64,000 bases of DNA, taken from Escherichia coli (lineage in GTDB: Bacteria; Pseudomonadota; Gammaproteobacteria; Enterobacterales; Enterobacteriaceae). A program made the translations under genes and the position numbers. Every line of letters starts with the position of its first letter. The stretch's first letter is position 1. The notes under the pieces are model-generated. The model searched no databases, was not told where the DNA came from, and was given only the letters and a program-made list of their open reading frames with translations. The stretch lies in the NCBI RefSeq assembly GCF_003334335.1, contig NZ_QOWQ01000011.1. One strand, written 5' to 3'. Shown in pieces: positions 1-54,750 of the stretch.

Positions 1-456
1 AGTACGGATTTGGGGACGAAAAACACATCGTCGTTTGATTACGGAACCAAATCCACGAATAACACCGGGGCGCATACCCATAGTATTAGCGGGACTGCAA
101 ATAGTGCCGGTGCGCACCAACACAAGAGTTCCGGTGCATTTGGTGGCACGAACACGAGCATTTTCCCTAATGGTTATACCGCGATTTCAAATCTAAGCGC
201 GGGGATTATGAGCACAACAAGCGGTAGTGGCCAGACTCGTAATGCAGGGAAGACATCATCAGATGGTGCTCATACCCACTCGCTGTCCGGCACTGCTGCA
301 AGCGCAGGCGCACATGCACATACTGTCGGTATTGGTGCTCATACGCACTCCGTTGCGATTGGCTCACACGGACACACCATCACCGTTAACGCTGCTGGTA
401 ACGCGGAAAACACCGTCAAAAACATCGCATTTAACTATATTGTGAGGCTTGCATAA
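1..456 (+). CDS. stf: Phage side tail fibre protein, C-terminal part (5' end outside window)
   Basis: Open frame from base 1 with no upstream stop. Gly/Ser/Thr-rich with repeated GAHTHS / GAHAH / GSHGH motifs, like the His-x-His motifs of T4 gp37 and lambda Stf distal fibres. Its stop overlaps the start of the next gene. Confidence 0.7.
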
Positions 457-1037
457 TGGCATTCAGAATGAGTGAACAACCACGGACCATAAAAATTTAT
501 AATCTGCTGGCCGGAACTAATGAATTTATTGGTGAAGGTGATGCATATATTCCGCCTCATACAGGTCTGCCAGCAAACAGTACCGATATTGCACCGCCAG
601 ATATTCCGGCTGGCTTCGTGGCTGTTTTCAACAGTGATGAGTCATCGTGGCATCTTGTTGAAGACCATCGGGGTAAAACAGTTTATGACGTGGCATCAGG
701 GGACGCGTTATTTATTTCTGAACTCGGCTCATTACCGGAAAATGTTACCTGGTTATCCCCGGAAGGGGAGTTTCAGAAGTGGAACGGCACAGCCTGGGTG
801 AAGGATACGGAAGCAGAAAAACTGTTCCGGATCCGGGAGGTGGAAGAAACAAAAAACAGCCTGATGCAGGTAGCCAGTGAGCATATAGCGCCGCTTCAGG
901 ATGCTGTGGATCTGGAAATCGCAACGGAGGAAGAAACCTTGTTGCTGGAAGCCTGGAAAAAGTATCGGGTATTGCTGAACCGTGTTGATACGTCAACTGC
1001 ACAGGATATTGAATGGCCAGTAGCACCTATAGGGTAA
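456..1037 (+). CDS. tfa: Phage tail fibre assembly protein
   Basis: 193 aa ORF starting at the ATG that overlaps the fibre gene stop (TAATG). The sequence resembles Tfa-family chaperones of lambdoid and P2-like phages. Confidence 0.75.
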
Positions 1038-1895
1038 ATTCGTAATGATTACCTAAATACGTTATTCTTTTGTTCAAAAAGTGATTTTGCTATAGATAGG
1101 GAGTATGTTCTTGGATTAAGAATAAAAATCGCCATGAAAGAGCTTCATGGCGAGTACATAAACGTACAAAATGTGATGAAAGTAGAGTGGCGTAAGCCAC
1201 TATATTAAGATGTGACAATAGCGAAGAAAAGTAAATAACATTTTATGGACGTTTAATTGTTAATTATAAAAACTAGAGTGCCCGATATTGTTTACCTTGC
1301 TTTAAAATAATGTACTCAAACCAAATTTTTGAGCTAAAAGCTCAAATAATATAAATGCAATAATAATGTTTAATAAGACAATTAGCTTGCTTTGTATTTT
1401 CATTTCGGAATACTGTTAAGTAACTTTGATGACCCTAACAATAGATCGGAATTTTCTTAGAGTCAATGGTCACTGTTTTTGCTTGCAAAGCAAATGTTTT
1501 GGTGGTTATAAGTTGTCTTAATATAGTCACGCATGCAACTTGTTCCATGCGGAGATTAAAGATTGGAATATAACGCTAAGATGGAATTAAATTACATTTG
1601 CAATAATCAATTTATTATTACTCAATAATTACCGATATTATTATTGTAAATTAATCATTAGAGTGCAAAAAGAAATGTAACGGCAAAATAAGAGGACGAT
1701 AGCTGAGAAAAAAGCGTGCTTTCCCAATCTGGGGCAAATCACGTCTGAATGACACCTGAAAACAGGTGGTAGCCTCAAGAAGGCTTGGAATATTCTTCTT
1801 TAATGTTATGTAATTCATTGATTTTTCGTGTACGATTTAAAGACATTTATTCCAAGAAAAATTTTTAACTCTTTGATTTTTCGACTCTGTATCAT

Positions 1896-1957
1896 CGGTC
1901 TCGAAAACCGGAGTAGGGGCAACTCTACCGGGGGTTCAAATCCCCCTCTCTCCGCCA
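1896..1957 (+). tRNA. 3' fragment (about 62 nt) of tRNA-Ser(CGA) (serU-like): anticodon stem, variable arm, T arm and acceptor 3' strand ending CCA. Not a complete tRNA.
   Basis: CGGTCTCGAAAACCGGAGTAGGGGCAACTCTACCGGGGGTTCAAATCCCCCTCTCTCCGCCA matches the 3' two-thirds of E. coli serU as I recall it. The 5' acceptor strand and D arm are missing; upstream sequence is unrelated AT-rich DNA. Confidence 0.7.
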
Positions 1958-2541
1958 CTTTATCAATGACTTATCTCCCGACTTCCCGCCTTGCTTTTCC
2001 TAAACAGAACAATCGTAGAATATTCTTGAAGGGTTAGATCGTCACTGTTTTCTGTTCGATACTGTGACATTCAGCACTTGATTCGCTATGGATCTGACAG
2101 GAAGGTTTTGAGCGAAAATTTGCAGTTATTCAGTCGTTTTCTTATCGGTCACCATTATTCTTTTAGACATTGATCCTACAAAGCTGCCGCAAAGTTGGTG
2201 GTGGGAACTGAAGTTGCGTAGAGAAGGGGTCAATACCCGGAGGCAAACATGGGCTGGCAAAAGTGTAGCGGTATTAGGCGCAGCTATTTAGCCTAGTTAT
2301 GTTTTATGAAAACTTGATATCATATAAGTGTCTTACTTATTGGCTGTAAATAAGTTTTTCCTAAGGAATTGTTTCTTGAGTATCATTTGTAACTGTAACG
2401 GAATTTATAATCCTTTGCTTTATTGTTACGGTATTTTTTATCACACCCTATTTTTTATGTGGTTTTTTATACTGAAGTTTGGCAAAGTGAACTTTATATG
2501 CATATACTTCATCCTGGTTTCAGTTAAGTTGGGTGGATGAT

Positions 2542-3285
2542 ATGGCAACTACATGTTCAGTTATATTGATTTTGGAGTCCTTTGATGTTTATTTCGGAAA
2601 AGAGAGTGTGTTTCTGGAGAGAGGTTCATCTGTACTTGTCGACTCTAGCTCTAGAGATTTTTTCCTGACATATCCTGAAAGAGTGATAGTGGCGGATTTT
2701 GGCGCTGAGTTTATTAGTCGCTATTTGAAAGCTAATAACTTAAGGGATATTTCTGATTGTAGGGAATATCCATCTTATTTAAAAATAAACTTTGCTGACT
2801 TCAGTTTAATTAAAGGATTAATTAGTTGGGCTAATCACTGTGCTGAATACATAGAAATTTTTGATGAGTCTATTGCTTTTACATGTCTCTCTGCATTTTC
2901 TTCTGAAAAACAATTTGGAGTATTTCTGTTTGAATGTTTGAAAAGCACAGGGGCTAAAGTTAAAACGATTATTCATACGGATTTATCTGCACCATGGCGT
3001 CTTAAGGATATATCATCAAGATTATATCTCAGCGAAAGTTTACTAAAGAGGAAATTGAAAGAAGAGGGGGTATCATTCAGTAAGATCATACTTGATGAGA
3101 GGATGCAAATGGCTGAATATTTACTCAGCACTCGTTGTTATCCTATTAGTAAAGTAGCTAAGGTCTGTGGTTATGCCAGTGTCTCATACTTTACTTATGT
3201 ATTTAGACGTTATTTTGGTGTTTCTCCAAGTCAATACTCTCAGAGCAGTTCAGAAAGTAAAATTCTTACTCACCAGGGAATCTGA
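2542..3285 (+). CDS. AraC/XylS-family transcriptional regulator, AppY/EnvY/Rns-like, low GC
   Basis: C-terminal helix-turn-helix region (ISKVAKVCGYASVSYFTYVFRRYFGVSPSQY) and overall similarity to prophage-borne AppY. ATG at 2542 preferred over the GTG at 2533 used by the ORF track. Confidence 0.75.
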   Translation: MATTCSVILILESFDVYFGKESVFLERGSSVLVDSSSRDFFLTYPERVIVADFGAEFISRYLKANNLRDISDCREYPSYLKINFADFSLIKGLISWANHCAEYIEIFDESIAFTCLSAFSSEKQFGVFLFECLKSTGAKVKTIIHTDLSAPWRLKDISSRLYLSESLLKRKLKEEGVSFSKIILDERMQMAEYLLSTRCYPISKVAKVCGYASVSYFTYVFRRYFGVSPSQYSQSSSESKILTHQGI

Positions 3286-3289
3286 TCAT

Positions 3290-3790
3290 TGTTCTTGCCC
3301 CCTTATTTCCAGACAGGGGGTGTATCTTAAGTTAACGTTACCCGCTGACGTCGATATTCTCGCGGAGAGCGATAACCCAACGCACTGTGCGGATGGTTTT
3401 CATTGTAATGTTCGATCGCCACTGCAAGATTATGCAATGCCGTTCTTACATTCGGTTTCGGCATGAACGCGATGTAGTCTTCCTTCATCGTTTTCACGAA
3501 CCTTTCTGCCATTCCATTACTCTGAGGACTGCTGATTGCCGTTGTGCAGGGCTCCAGATTCAACTCTCTGGCGAACTGCCATGTTTCATGCGCTCTATAC
3601 GCTGAACCGTTATCTGTCAGCCACTGGATGGACTGTTCCGGTACTTTATCGCCAAAGCGTTTTTCTATCGCTCCTAACATGACATCCTGCACTGTCGCTT
3701 TATCGTAACCTCCCGTGCTTGCGGCCCAGTCTATGGCTTCACGATCGCAACAGTCCAGGGCGAACGTAACACGCAGTTTTGAATCGCCAC
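3290..3790 (-). mobile_element. IS3-family (IS2-like) insertion sequence remnant: one terminal inverted repeat plus the 3' part of the transposase gene
   Basis: Terminus TTGCCCCCTTATTTCCAGACA at about 3291-3311 resembles the IS2 right inverted repeat. The adjacent minus-strand ORF encodes a DDE transposase C-terminus. The element is cut off near 3780-3790 by a second IS end. Confidence 0.55.
3327..3692 (-). pseudogene. Truncated IS3-family transposase OrfB (C-terminal about 120 aa only)
   Basis: Translation ends ...[20 protein letters not shown], the conserved C-terminal signature of IS3-family DDE transposases. The N-terminal catalytic region is absent. Confidence 0.6.
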
Positions 3791-4080
3791 GGGTTTAACA
3801 GACACCTCAGAGTCATTTAAGATGGCTTAAAGAGAGGTGCCCATGAGCGGTAAGCGTTATCCCGAAGAGTTTAAAACTGAAGCAGTCAAACAGGTTGTTG
3901 ATCGCGGTTATTCTGTTGCCAGCGTTGCAACACGTCTCGATATCACCACCCACAGCCTTTATGCCTGGATAAAGAAGTACGGTCCGGATTACTCCACTTT
4001 TTCATCAAGCCAATCCGCCCACCACTGCATCATTTCTCTGCGCTTATCGAGATACTGAGCGTGGTTGTAAATTCAGCTAA
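3781..4080 (+). mobile_element. Second IS3-family insertion sequence remnant: left end plus truncated orfA
   Basis: TGAATCGCCACGGGTTTAACAGACACC resembles IS3-family left ends (TGA...GTTTAAC.GACAC, as in IS600). It is followed by an OrfA-like helix-turn-helix ORF and ends abruptly before the tI/sib hairpin. Confidence 0.5.
3837..4058 (+). pseudogene. Truncated IS3-family transposase OrfA (helix-turn-helix domain intact, C-terminus degenerate)
   Basis: N-terminus MSGKRYPEEFKTEAVKQVVDRGYSVASVATRLDITTHSLYAWIKKYG is a typical OrfA helix-turn-helix. No leucine zipper, frameshift window or orfB follows. Confidence 0.6.
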
Positions 4081-4088
4081 CCCAGTGT

Positions 4089-4136
4089 GTTGACAAAAAA
4101 TTAGCGCAAGAAGACAAAAAAATCACCTTGCGCTAA
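4089..4136 (-). terminator. Lambda tI/sib-like hairpin adjacent to the att P arm
   Basis: 10-bp inverted repeat TTAGCGCAAG / CTTGCGCTAA with a 16-nt loop, followed on the minus strand by TTTTTTG. It is the reverse complement of the lambda sib/tI sequence as I recall it. Confidence 0.55.
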
Positions 4137-4138
4137 TG

Positions 4139-4300
4139 CTCTGTTACAGGTCACTAATACCATCTAAGTGGTTGATTCATAGTGACTGGATATGTTGTGT
4201 TTTGTAGCATTATGTAGTCTATTTTTTAGACTGAATAAATTATAAGTCGTTGATATTAATTGTTTTTACCGTTTCACATTCAACTTTTTTATACTAACTT
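4139..4300. other. attR: Prophage attR (lambda-type P arm, core CTTTTTTATACTAA at about 4284-4297, bacterial B' arm)
   Basis: TCTGTTACAGGTCACTAATACCATCTAAGT... closely matches the lambda P arm; it diverges toward the core. Core and downstream CTTGAGCGAAACGGGAAGG match the E. coli attB side. Confidence 0.75.
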
Positions 4301-4387
4301 GAGCGAAACGGGAAGGTAAAAAGACAAAAAGTTGTTTTTAATACCTTTAAGTGATACCAGATGGCATTGCGCCATCTGGCAGAGTGA

Positions 4388-4864
4388 TTAACTAAACATC
4401 GCAGTAATCGAGGCGCTTGCCAGAGAGTGGAAATGAACGTTAAACCCGACCATCGCGCCGCTGGCACCTTCATCGACATCAATACGTTCTATATCCAGCG
4501 CGTGAACGGTAAAAATGTAGCGATGAGTTTCGCCTTTCGGCGGTGCTGCGCCATCGTACCCGGTTTTACCAAAGTCGGTACGCGTCTGCAAAACGCCGTC
4601 TGGCATTGCTACCAGACCAGAGCCAAACCCTTGCGGTAATACGCGGGTATCAGCGGGTAAGTTAACAACTACCCAGTGCCACCAGCCGGAGCCGGTTGGC
4701 GCATCCGGGTCGTAGCAGGTGACAACAAAACTTTTCGTTCCCGCAGGAACATCATCCCACGCCAGATGCGGTGAAATATTATCGCCATCGTAACCCATGC
4801 CGTTAAAGACATGACGATGCGGCAATTTATCGCCATCGCGCAGATCGTTACTGATGAGTTTCAT
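4388..4864 (-). CDS. ybhB: PEBP-family protein YbhB
   Basis: 158 aa ORF recognised as K-12 YbhB; position next to bioA. Confidence 0.9.
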   Translation of the reverse strand: MKLISNDLRDGDKLPHRHVFNGMGYDGDNISPHLAWDDVPAGTKSFVVTCYDPDAPTGSGWWHWVVVNLPADTRVLPQGFGSGLVAMPDGVLQTRTDFGKTGYDGAAPPKGETHRYIFTVHALDIERIDVDEGASGAMVGFNVHFHSLASASITAMFS

Positions 4865-6298: not shown

Positions 6299-7339
6299 AT
6301 GGCTCACCGCCCACGCTGGACATTGTCGCAAGTCACAGAATTATTTGAAAAACCGTTGCTGGATCTGCTGTTTGAAGCGCAGCAGGTGCATCGCCAGCAT
6401 TTCGATCCTCGTCAGGTGCAGGTCAGCACGTTGCTGTCGATTAAGACCGGAGCTTGTCCGGAAGATTGCAAATACTGCCCGCAAAGCTCGCGCTACAAAA
6501 CCGGGCTGGAAGCCGAGCGGTTGATGGAAGTTGAACAGGTGCTGGAGTCGGCGCGCAAAGCGAAAGCGGCAGGATCGACGCGCTTCTGTATGGGCGCGGC
6601 GTGGAAGAATCCCCACGAACGCGATATGCCGTACCTGGAACAAATGGTGCAGGGGGTAAAAGCGATGGGGCTGGAGGCGTGTATGACGCTGGGCACGTTG
6701 AGTGAATCTCAGGCGCAGCGCCTCGCGAACGCCGGGCTGGATTACTACAACCACAACCTGGACACCTCGCCGGAGTTTTACGGCAATATCATCACCACAC
6801 GCACTTATCAGGAACGCCTCGATACGCTGGAAAAAGTGCGCGATGCCGGGATCAAAGTCTGTTCTGGCGGCATTGTGGGCTTAGGCGAAACGGTAAAAGA
6901 TCGCGCCGGATTATTGCTGCAACTGGCAAACCTGCCGACGCCGCCGGAAAGCGTGCCAATCAACATGCTGGTGAAGGTGAAAGGCACGCCGCTTGCCGAT
7001 AACGATGATGTCGATGCCTTTGATTTTATTCGCACCATTGCGGTCGCGCGGATCATGATGCCAACCTCTTACGTGCGCCTTTCTGCCGGACGCGAGCAGA
7101 TGAACGAACAGACTCAGGCGATGTGCTTTATGGCAGGCGCAAACTCGATTTTCTACGGTTGCAAACTGCTGACCACGCCGAATCCGGAAGAAGATAAAGA
7201 CCTGCAACTGTTCCGCAAACTGGGGCTAAATCCGCAGCAAACTGCCGTGCTGGCAGGGGATAACGAACAACAGCAACGTCTTGAACAGGCGCTGATGACC
7301 CCGGACACCGACGAATATTACAACGCGGCAGCATTATGA
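6299..7339 (+). CDS. bioB: Biotin synthase (radical SAM)
   Basis: 346 aa, CxxxCxxC motif ([10 protein letters not shown]), recognised sequence. Confidence 0.95.
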
Positions 7340-8490
7340 GCTGGCAGGAGAAAATCAACGCGGCGCTCGATGCGCGGCGTGCTGCCGATGCCCTGCGTCG
7401 CCGTTATCCGGTGGCGCAAGGAGCCGGACGCTGGCTGGTGGCGGATGATCGCCAGTATCTGAACTTTTCCAGTAACGATTATTTAGGTTTAAGCCATCAT
7501 CCGCAAATTATCCGTGCCTGGCAGCAGGGGGCGGAGCAATTTGGCATCGGTAGCGGCGGCTCCGGTCACGTCAGCGGTTATAGCGTGGTGCATCAGGCAC
7601 TGGAAGAAGAGCTGGCCGAGTGGCTTGGCTATTCGCGGGCACTGCTGTTTATCTCTGGTTTCGCCGCTAATCAGGCAGTTATTGCCGCGATGATGGCGAA
7701 AGAGGACCGTATTGCTGCCGACCGGCTTAGCCATGCCTCATTGCTGGAAGCTGCCAGTTTAAGCCCGTCGCAGCTTCGCCGTTTTGCTCATAACGATGTC
7801 ACTCATCTGGCGCGATTGCTTGCTTCCCCCTGTCCGGGGCAGCAAATGGTGGTGACAGAAGGCGTGTTCAGCATGGACGGCGATAGTGCGCCACTGGCGG
7901 AAATCCAGCAGGTAACGCAACAGCACAATGGCTGGTTGATGGTCGATGATGCCCACGGCACGGGCGTTATCGGGGAGCAGGGGCGCGGCAGCTGCTGGCT
8001 GCAAAAGGTAAAACCAGAATTGCTGGTAGTGACTTTTGGCAAAGGATTTGGCGTCAGCGGGGCAGCGGTGCTTTGCTCCAGTACGGTGGCGGATTATCTG
8101 CTGCAATTCGCCCGCCACCTTATCTACAGCACCAGTATGCCGCCCGCTCAGGCGCAGGCATTACGTGCGTCGCTGGCGGTCATTCGCAGTGATGAGGGTG
8201 ATGCACGGCGCGAAAAACTGGCGGCACTCATTACGCGTTTTCGTGCCGGAGTACAGGATTTGCCGTTTACGCTTGCTGATTCATGCAGCGCCATCCAGCC
8301 ATTGATTGTCGGTGATAACAGCCGTGCGTTACAACTGGCAGAAAAACTGCGCCAGCAAGGCTGCTGGGTCACGGCGATTCGCCCGCCAACCGTACCCGCT
8401 GGTACTGCGCGACTGCGCTTAACGCTAACCGCTGCGCATGAAATGCAGGATATCGACCGTCTGCTGGAGGTGCTGCATGGCAACGGTTAA
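7336..8490 (+). CDS. bioF: 8-amino-7-oxononanoate synthase
   Basis: 384 aa; start overlaps the bioB stop (ATGA). Confidence 0.95.
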
Positions 8491-12502: not shown

Positions 12503-12540
12503 CAGGATAGCGAAGAAGACTGATGACAAACGGAAAACAG

Positions 12541-12637
12541 CCTGATGCGCTACGCTTATCAGGCCTACATTTTCTCCGCAATATATTGAATTTGCGCGGT
12601 TTGTAGGCCGGATAAGGCGTTCACGCCGCATCCGGCA
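12541..12637. repeat. Composite REP unit (two opposed REP palindromes around a shared spacer)
   Basis: CCTGATGCGCTACGCTTATCAGGCCTAC ... CAATATATTGAATTTGC ... GTAGGCCGGATAAGGCGTTCACGCCGCATCCGGCA. Confidence 0.85.
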
Positions 12638-12693
12638 TAAACAACGCGCACTTTGTCTTCAATAGGAAGCCGGAATTTTCCTTCGGATTTCCG

Positions 12694-29191: not shown

Positions 29192-29244
29192 TCTTTTATG
29201 CCGGGCTATGCCCGGCATCAGGCTGATGAACAAACGCAAAACTG

Positions 29245-29341
<97 letters not shown>

Positions 29342-29422
29342 ATTTCACAACAAGCACTTGTCAGCAATTTGAGAACACGGGAAAAAATTTATCTGTTTTA
29401 CCGCCCATAAGCCACCGAGACG

Positions 29423-36162: not shown

Positions 36163-36203
36163 ACAATTTCTCCAAAAAGTGGGGCCTGCGCCCCACATCT
36201 GAA

Positions 36204-42435: not shown

Positions 42436-42586
42436 GACTCCTCCAGTGAGAAAATAGAGCAAAAAGATAAGTATAGATGCTGGAGGAGGGGCGATTTTAA
42501 ATGAGAGGAATCTGGTGTGCCTCCCTTTCGGGTGAAAGGGAGGAAGGGATATTAAGCAGGTTGCTGACAACGTGCGGGCTTTTTTG

Positions 42587-42688
42587 CCGGATGCGGCGTG
42601 AACGCCTTATCCGTCCTACAAGTTCATGCAATTTTAATAAGTTGCCAGATATCCTGTAGGCCTGATAAGCGTAGCGCATCAGGCAATG
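42587..42688. repeat. Composite REP unit, opposite orientation to 12541-12637
   Basis: CCGGATGCGGCGTGAACGCCTTATCCGTCCTAC ... GTAGGCCTGATAAGCGTAGCGCATCAGGC. Confidence 0.8.
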
Positions 42689-54510: not shown

Positions 54511-54571
54511 GTGATTATCCGTCACCCCGATACTGTCGGGGTGACGGCGGCTGATGACAAATGCAAAATAG

Positions 54572-54670
54572 CCTGATGCGCTACGCTTATCAGGCCTACG
54601 CAGTACCTGCAATATATTGAATCTGCAGGACTTTGTAGGCCGGATAAGGCGTTAACGCCGCATCAGGCAT
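54572..54670. repeat. Composite REP unit, third copy in the same orientation as 12541-12637
   Basis: Same architecture and spacer (CAATATATTGAATCTGC). Confidence 0.85.
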
Positions 54671-54750
54671 TAACAAAGCGCATTTGTCAGCAATCTGAGT
54701 AACGTCGAATCGATTTTCTTAATCCCACATCAATTCACTTCCATTAATTC

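Follow-up and report, generated by a model that had tools for sequence, protein, structure and literature searches.

A lambdoid prophage beside ybhB in Escherichia coli carries a probable allele of patE, a regulator gene first described in O157:H7

What does an AT-rich regulator gene at the right end of a lambdoid prophage control when no target lies beside it, and how did it reach that position? The question arises from a stretch of 64,000 nucleotides of Escherichia coli DNA (hereafter the window), in which a first-pass annotation had pointed to an AraC-family regulator, called it AppY/Rns-like prophage cargo and left its regulon unknown. We conclude with high confidence that the gene, at positions 2542–3285, is an allele of patE, which encodes a prophage-borne activator first described in O157:H7 and acting on the GAD circuit of the host. 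The feature is genuine but not new: PatE has been characterized and is annotated in hundreds of genomes. Our own analysis covers sequence identity, domains, prophage position and distribution, while for the targets and the acid-resistance phenotype we draw on the literature on the 99% identical PatE.

The boundaries of the gene had to be redrawn. In the list of open reading frames (ORFs), the regulator falls within a 250-aa ORF on the plus strand, which opens with a GTG at 2533 and ends with the stop codon at 3285. We place the start at the ATG at 2542, giving a plus-strand gene of 2542–3285, stop codon included, and a protein of 247 aa. Its N-terminus, MATTCSVI, aligns with MSLVCSVI in YdeO, MTHVCSVI in GadW and MDYVCSVV in AppY, and in our alignment this MxxxCSVI motif is conserved in these three proteins and in all close homologues, which supports the choice of ATG. 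A candidate ribosome-binding site, GGGTGGA, lies 5' of it at 2531–2537. In strain RM10410, the DNA of which is 100% identical to positions 1–4500 of the window, RefSeq annotates the equivalent of 2542–3285 as an AraC family transcriptional regulator (WP_000246057.1). The earlier span of 2328–3285 is untenable: its 958 nt cannot be divided into whole codons, and it begins 214 nt too far to the left, at a position in frame 0, whereas patE is read in frame 1 and has an in-frame stop at 2488. What begins at 2328 is a 70-aa ORF (2328–2540, frame 0) that is separate from the patE frame and has no match to any PHROG phage protein family. This out-of-frame ORF, the candidate ribosome-binding site and a candidate promoter lie together in the patE 5' region (2236–2541, plus strand, 34% GC), which is 99.3% identical to Sakai Sp1 as part of a larger cassette described below. 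The candidate promoter at 2479–2508 (TTGGCA-18-TATACT) matches 10 of the 12 consensus positions, but sites of this kind are no commoner here than in shuffled sequence.

Within these boundaries, the ORF is intact and shows none of the frameshifting that the first-pass annotation had considered. Its assignment to the AraC/XylS family of transcriptional regulators holds: two helix-turn-helix (HTH) motifs occupy a C-terminal DNA-binding domain of some 100 aa, in which Pfam detects HTH_18 (E 2.3e-15, residues 161–237) and HTH_AraC twice (E 1.2e-9, residues 204–235; E 5e-4, residues 147–186), and the protein matches phrog_1450 with E 3.6e-94. The marked AT-richness relative to the flanks is also real, as the coding sequence has 35.1% GC compared with 49% in stf/tfa, 55.6% in ybhB–bioD and 51.6% in the whole window.

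Identification as PatE comes from O157:H7. The window protein is identical at 245 of 247 positions to ECs_0287 of strain Sakai (247 aa), which lies in prophage Sp1 at thrW; the one gene of Sp1 annotated as a transcription regulator is ECs_0287, and a partial IS3 (ISEc48) follows it. The thrW prophage of EDL933, CP-933H, has WP_000246059.1 as its sole AraC gene, with the same length and coordinates as ECs_0287, and relative to this EDL933 PatE the window protein carries the substitutions G131E and R235S. We take OI-8 to be CP-933H/Sp1, in line with the genome papers and with the abstract of Bender 2012, which reportedly places patE in CP-933H. A 2024 review places PatE (z0321) on OI-8 of EDL933 (PMC10877973). 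Equating z0321 with ECs_0287 and WP_000246059.1 rests on position, that is, on there being only one AraC gene in the thrW prophage. With 245 of 247 residues identical to this CP-933H/Sp1 regulator, the window gene is therefore to be regarded as the G131E, R235S allele of patE. Near-identity, a common cassette and a corresponding prophage location all point to orthology.

A homology search had been proposed to place the gene within the AraC family, and beyond PatE it leads to YdeO and GadW, the closest characterized chromosomal relatives, with AppY and Rns more distant. Identity to the window protein over the full length is 34.7% for YdeO, 33.5% for GadW and 28.8% for AppY (b0564; 233 aa); over C-terminal segments, it is 34.8% for GadX (161 aa) and 38.6% for EnvY (127 aa). 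Since YdeO and GadW are the nearest relatives, the label AppY/Rns-like is a loose one, serviceable as a rough family name and inaccurate as a placement, Rns being about 20% identical and related at the level of the fold. The best NCBIfam match is YdeO (NF007407; residues 1–234 aligned to 1–232 of 253), but its 148.8 bits fall below the equivalog cut-off of 348, and with 34.7% identity we regard YdeO as a paralogue and reject identity with it; GadX is the second match (109 bits, cut-off 500). Orthology with AppY is rejected at 28.8% identity, even though subfamily and prophage slot are shared.

An AlphaFold model of the regulator (pLDDT 81.7) comprises an N-terminal β-sandwich, a helical linker and a double HTH, with helices in H154–H244. 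Among solved structures, the best sequence matches are the GadX DNA-binding domain, CsvR, Rns and ToxT. The DNA-binding domain of the model superimposes on GadX (3mkl) with a TM score of 0.90, an rmsd of 1.2 Å and 42% identity. Foldseek returns Rns, CsvR and ToxT as full-length matches of the model (E 3e-11 to 6e-8, 18–22% identity), with an overall TM score of just 0.42 because the domains are oriented differently in the model; in phmmer, the Rns/CfaD/ToxT group is matched over residues 105–232 only (E 1e-15).

These resemblances might be taken to mean that the protein belongs with AppY or Rns and controls other genes, such as the hya and app operons or fimbrial and virulence genes, instead of the GAD and hde genes. 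The two-domain fold is indeed predicted to be most similar to those of Rns, CsvR and ToxT, appY occupies the same prophage slot in DLP12 and encodes a protein that is recognizably similar along its whole length, and the AT-rich sites bound by AraC regulators of this clade overlap. Nevertheless, identity to Rns and ToxT is only about 20%, neither fimbrial genes nor other candidate targets are found close by, and the protein shares 99% of its residues with PatE, whose targets, as indicated by microarray and EMSA data, are gad and hde genes (PMC10877973). Moreover, AppY works largely through gadE and AR2 (PMC10057817), and an AppY-type regulator would therefore converge on the same circuit. We consider a separate regulon of this kind very improbable. 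With targets for PatE published (PMC10877973), the earlier statement that the regulon is unknown no longer stands. The accompanying remark that no linked target is visible is borne out: neither gad/hde DNA nor a second AraC paralogue was found in the 64,000-nt window. The predicted targets form the host's conserved acid fitness island, at another chromosomal site, and hence none would be expected beside patE.

The gene is cargo (a moron) in the b-region of a lambdoid prophage. At the left, the window begins within stf, the side tail fibre gene, which starts outside it and the 3' end of which occupies 1–456 (plus strand; GAHTH repeats, a RefSeq "phage tail protein" in RM10410, collinear with ev099 gp26). 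It is followed by the last structural prophage gene, tfa, for tail fibre assembly (456–1037, plus strand; a 193-aa ORF, WP_000885613.1), inside which Rfam reports an IS009 match at 799–997 (218 bits). To the right of patE lie a partial IS3-family element (3290–3779, minus strand), corresponding to the 3' part of an ISEc48/IS2-like orfB (annotated in Sakai as ISEc48, IS3 family, partial, and by RefSeq as a pseudogene with an integrase core domain), and further transposase fragments (3843–4072, no strand assigned), which RefSeq lists in RM10410 as the pseudogenes "transposase" and "hypothetical protein" and which also occur in ev099 and PhiR70_1. The prophage ends in a lambda-type attR (4085–4297, plus strand) composed of the P arm of attP (about 4085–4283) and a 14-bp core match, CTTTTTTATACTAA (4284–4297). 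Positions 4085–4301 are 85.8% identical to lambda (J02459, 27528–27742, with Int sites and a misc_recomb feature) and 88–90% identical to the attP regions of 434 and HK97. Phage ev099 matches positions 1–4301 at 98.3%, and homology to ev099 and PhiR70_1 ends at 4301; in ev099, int and xis come next. The first chromosomal gene beyond attR is ybhB (4388–4864, minus strand; RefSeq), on the bio side of attB-lambda, followed by bioA, bioB, bioF, bioC and bioD and then by core chromosome up to ybiW. Because patE lies between tfa and an attR next to ybhB–bioA, its description as prophage cargo between the tail fibre module and attR is correct. The slot is equivalent to that of appY downstream of tfaD/tfaX in DLP12 of K-12.

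This position bears on whether patE mainly serves the phage by controlling lysogeny, lysis timing or superinfection. Such a role is suggested by relatives in another slot: closer but uncharacterized homologues, 47–84% identical, lie in other lambdoid prophages between the gene for the Q antiterminator, which they follow directly, and the holin gene, and the same Q-to-holin slot holds a 237-aa AraC gene, 37% identical to PatE, of which O157 genomes have two copies and which adjoins stx2k in one phage. For these Q-to-holin copies, a phage function is conceivable. The gene studied here, however, is not part of the late operon: about 1.5 kb separates it from tfa, a hairpin and a fossil att site intervene, and attR is next to it; the published targets of PatE are host genes (PMC10877973); and patE persists in heavily deleted remnants such as Sp1 and the prophage of RM10410, in which no phage functions are left to regulate. 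We therefore regard control of phage functions as an extremely remote prospect. The 237-aa O157 gene is taken to be PsrA/PsrB. The 47–55% identical homologues P0013, P0015 and P0021 were also considered as the O157 PsrA/PsrB and rejected, as a DNA search with P0013 and P0021 listed no O157 genome. In the EDL933 assembly CP008957, no AraC gene that could be psrA (z1789) was found in the potC prophage (nleL/espN/espK), which we take to be CP-933N/OI-50.

How patE came to this position may be read in part from the DNA around it. A 1.87-kb cassette at 1895–3763 is common to the window and Sakai Sp1, with 99.3% DNA identity and with the 5' region and the IS3 remnant included; the right edge of the homology, at 3763, falls inside that remnant. 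Between tfa and the cassette, positions 1040–1895 (no strand assigned) are the non-coding right arm of a serU-integrating lambdoid phage, with 31% GC and a terminator-like hairpin at 1129–1153. In strain HN68, this segment forms the right end of a prophage at the serU/zinT locus, its last part, 1780–1895, matches the phage side of attR in the prophage SerU-LTIIb, and no annotated feature underlies it in any of 1429 genomes. Positions 1896–1957 (plus strand) are the 3' 62 nt of the serU gene for tRNA-Ser(CGA), ending in CCA, which form the att core of serU-integrating phages; this is a fragment and not a gene, and it is annotated as a pseudo tRNA-Ser in KU052038. A complete tRNA at about 1900 was rejected, as ARAGORN found none, and the tRNA fragment accounts for weak Rfam matches nearby (to tmRNA, sX4 and a plastid element). 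The following 278 bp, 1958–2235 (plus strand), are E. coli chromosomal DNA from the serU–yodB intergenic region carried inside the phage: 1896–2235 is 97.4% identical to K-12 2,043,529–2,043,190, and 1780–2235 matches the attR of SerU-LTIIb, beyond which lies yodB.

Inside a phage with lambda attachment specificity there is thus a fossil attR of a serU phage, accompanied by host DNA and directly followed by patE and IS3 debris. This arrangement looks like a scar left when excision went wrong or an IS mediated capture, after which integration modules were exchanged. We put forward tentatively, at somewhat short of even odds, that aberrant excision of or recombination by a serU phage took along its own attR, 278 bp of chromosome and an IS-flanked patE, and that the unit later moved to phages integrating at the lambda att site and thrW. 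Among 5426 complete E. coli genomes, none has patE adjoining a full-length native serU–mtfA; therefore, the donor arrangement was not found in this set.

The patE region is widespread. It is present in 658 of the 5426 complete genomes (about 12%), nearly always in a single copy, and 156 genomes share the wider arrangement of 3.4 kb found in the window. The gene is carried by at least two prophage backbones, one being the lambda-att lambdoid prophage of this window and of strain CS18F and the other a thrW Sp1/e14-like element, in which pinE and a GIY-YIG gene precede patE (Sakai, EDL933 and ECE228); in MS 69-1, a 64-kb circular element of the thrW Sp1/e14-like type carries patE. In addition, the sequenced phages ev099, mEp332 and PhiR70_1 (four database records) carry the cassette and encode PatE with 98–99% protein identity.

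This distribution also informs the question of whether patE might be a silent or impaired passenger that hitch-hikes with the prophage, either because G131E and R235S inactivate the protein or because H-NS keeps the gene off. Residue 131, glutamate in the window allele, is an invariant glycine among the 10 PatE-clade homologues aligned; frameshifted variants of 306–308 aa in other genomes demonstrate that the gene can decay; IS debris flanks the cassette, and the surrounding prophage in RM10410 is a deleted remnant. A GC content of 35% is, we infer, typical of H-NS-bound DNA, and from its composition the AT-rich patE may be subject to H-NS silencing. Against this, position 131 varies in YdeO, GadW and AppY; the ORF has remained intact as a single copy in very different strains and on two backbones, with at least 99% identity to the patE region in 584 of the 660 matching records; and at least 20 genomes, from birds, humans and farms, carry an allele 100% identical to that of the window. 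We consider it unlikely that patE is such a passenger. For an active PatE, the effect of the E131/S235 allele on gad and hde genes is predicted from that of the O157:H7 protein.

What PatE does has been reported elsewhere. According to the review, PatE is expressed in stationary phase, activates gadB, gadC, gadE and hdeAB, works in the hdeA promoter through a cis-element located between –132 and –45, and lowers expression of six LEE genes (PMC10877973). YdeO, GadW and AppY are activators of the same AR2 circuit (PMC10057817). In the non-pathogenic E. coli Nissle, overexpression of CIW80_12240, a PatE homologue according to its authors, raised expression of AR2–5 genes and led to higher survival at pH 2.5 (bioRxiv 10.1101/2025.08.01.668021). 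By extension to this locus, we suggest that a lysogen would make PatE from its own promoter, mainly in stationary phase as the O157:H7 work implies. The C-terminal double HTH would bind AT-rich sites upstream of hdeA, and PatE would raise gadE expression; GadE would in turn switch on glutamate-dependent acid resistance (gadA/BC and hdeAB) and, in LEE-positive strains, repress type III secretion. In this mechanism, patE would be a moron, a gene of lysogenic conversion, through which a phage regulator is wired into a conserved host circuit.

PatE-type regulators suggest that a phage may aid passage of its host through the stomach by rewiring the conserved GAD circuit, without bringing acid-resistance enzymes of its own. 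The locus adds no new biology but shows that patE is not confined to O157:H7; its spread matters when acid tolerance and infectious dose are to be predicted for non-O157 strains. If anything here is new, it is the capture scar and the occurrence of patE in sequenced genomes of lambdoid phages. The embedded serU attR with host DNA offers a checkable example of cargo-gene capture, and if the capture reading is true, lysogenic conversion by ev099, mEp332 and PhiR70_1 could disseminate an activator of acid resistance among E. coli strains, both commensal and pathogenic.

Among known systems, the nearest is PatE of O157:H7 itself (z0321/ECs0287), which has the same length and sits in the same cassette at the right end of its element; the difference lies in the backbone, which in O157:H7 is a thrW e14/Sp1-type element with patE after pinE and the GIY-YIG gene and here is a lambda-att (gal/bio) prophage with patE after stf/tfa. 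YdeO and GadW share full-length homology and the N-terminal motif with the window protein, and the PatE literature assigns YdeO, GadW and GadX the same output, gadE and hdeA. These three regulators are chromosomal, whereas patE is mobile on phages, lies outside the acid fitness island and is not under EvgAS control. AppY of DLP12 is likewise prophage-encoded, downstream of tail-fibre-assembly remnants near a prophage end, and induces gadE and AR2 genes; at 28.8% identity, however, it is a paralogue and therefore not an orthologue of the window protein, and its regulon adds hya, app and motility and biofilm effects that are not reported for PatE. PsrA and PsrB of O157:H7 are also AraC-like regulators found only on prophages and acting on gadE and hdeA, and PsrB and PatE share their binding region in the hdeA promoter (PMC10877973). 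The presumed psrA/B genes occupy the Q-to-holin slot, where Stx phages carry stx, whereas patE lies at the tail-fibre/att end. Finally, the fatty-acid-binding virulence regulators Rns/CfaD, CsvR and ToxT have the same predicted two-domain architecture of β-sandwich and double HTH but are about 20% identical and control pili and toxin.

Inside the b-region of the lambda-att prophage lies a fossil attR (window 1780-2235) from a serU-integrating lambdoid phage, in which a phage arm is joined to the last 62 nt (3' end) of the tRNA-Ser gene serU and to 278 bp of the E. coli intergenic region between serU and yodB. The serU fragment, at 1895, is the exact start of the cassette that carries the AraC/XylS-family regulator gene patE and is shared with prophage Sp1 of O157:H7 Sakai. 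At the other end, patE is separated from the lambda P arm of attR by two or three IS3-family transposase fragments (3290-4072). Because the homology to Sp1 stops at 3763, within the first of these fragments, we suggest that the right border of the cassette was set by IS-mediated recombination.

Other genomes encode patE variants of 306-308 aa (proteins P0001, P0002, P0004 and P0006), in which a frameshift near codon 230 joins patE to an overlapping frame at its 3' end (3167-3466 in the window, plus strand) that extends into the IS remnant. In the window, patE is intact and lacks this frameshift.

Other lambdoid prophages likewise carry PatE-family genes, 37-84% identical, which lie between their Q antiterminator and holin genes (comparison loci L002, 8001-8732; L021 and L022, both 7001-7735; L025 and L026, both 4001-4714), and in phage phiSTEC1575-Stx2k the family member is located directly upstream of tRNAs and stx2k. 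By tblastn, no AraC-family gene was detected in the potC-adjacent EDL933 prophage (L018; NZ_CP008957.1 1625001-1675000), which carries nleL, espN and espK and which we take to be CP-933N/OI-50. Reviews place psrA (z1789), encoding an AraC-like secretion regulator of O157:H7, on OI-50, and its absence from L018 may reflect re-assembly of the EDL933 prophages.

Upstream of the cassette, a full-length match to Rfam IS009 lies within the tail fibre assembly gene tfa, in its 3' half (799-997; 218 bits, gathering score 117). A hairpin with an 11-bp stem and a T-tail on the minus strand follows just 3' of tfa (1129-1153), and downstream of it are ~750 bp of DNA with a GC content of 28-31%, in which no genes are annotated across 1429 genomes.

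In the core chromosome, a 100-158-nt repeat is present in four intergenic copies that are 81-86% alike and in both orientations (12517-12657, 29220-29376, 42557-42687 and 54549-54703), and these are probably REP/BIME-type elements. E. coli RM10410 and the window are collinear at 99.5-100% identity, except that RM10410 has an IS421 element inserted between ybiX and fiu, which is absent from the window (about 36182-36193); the window strain is therefore related to, but distinct from, RM10410.
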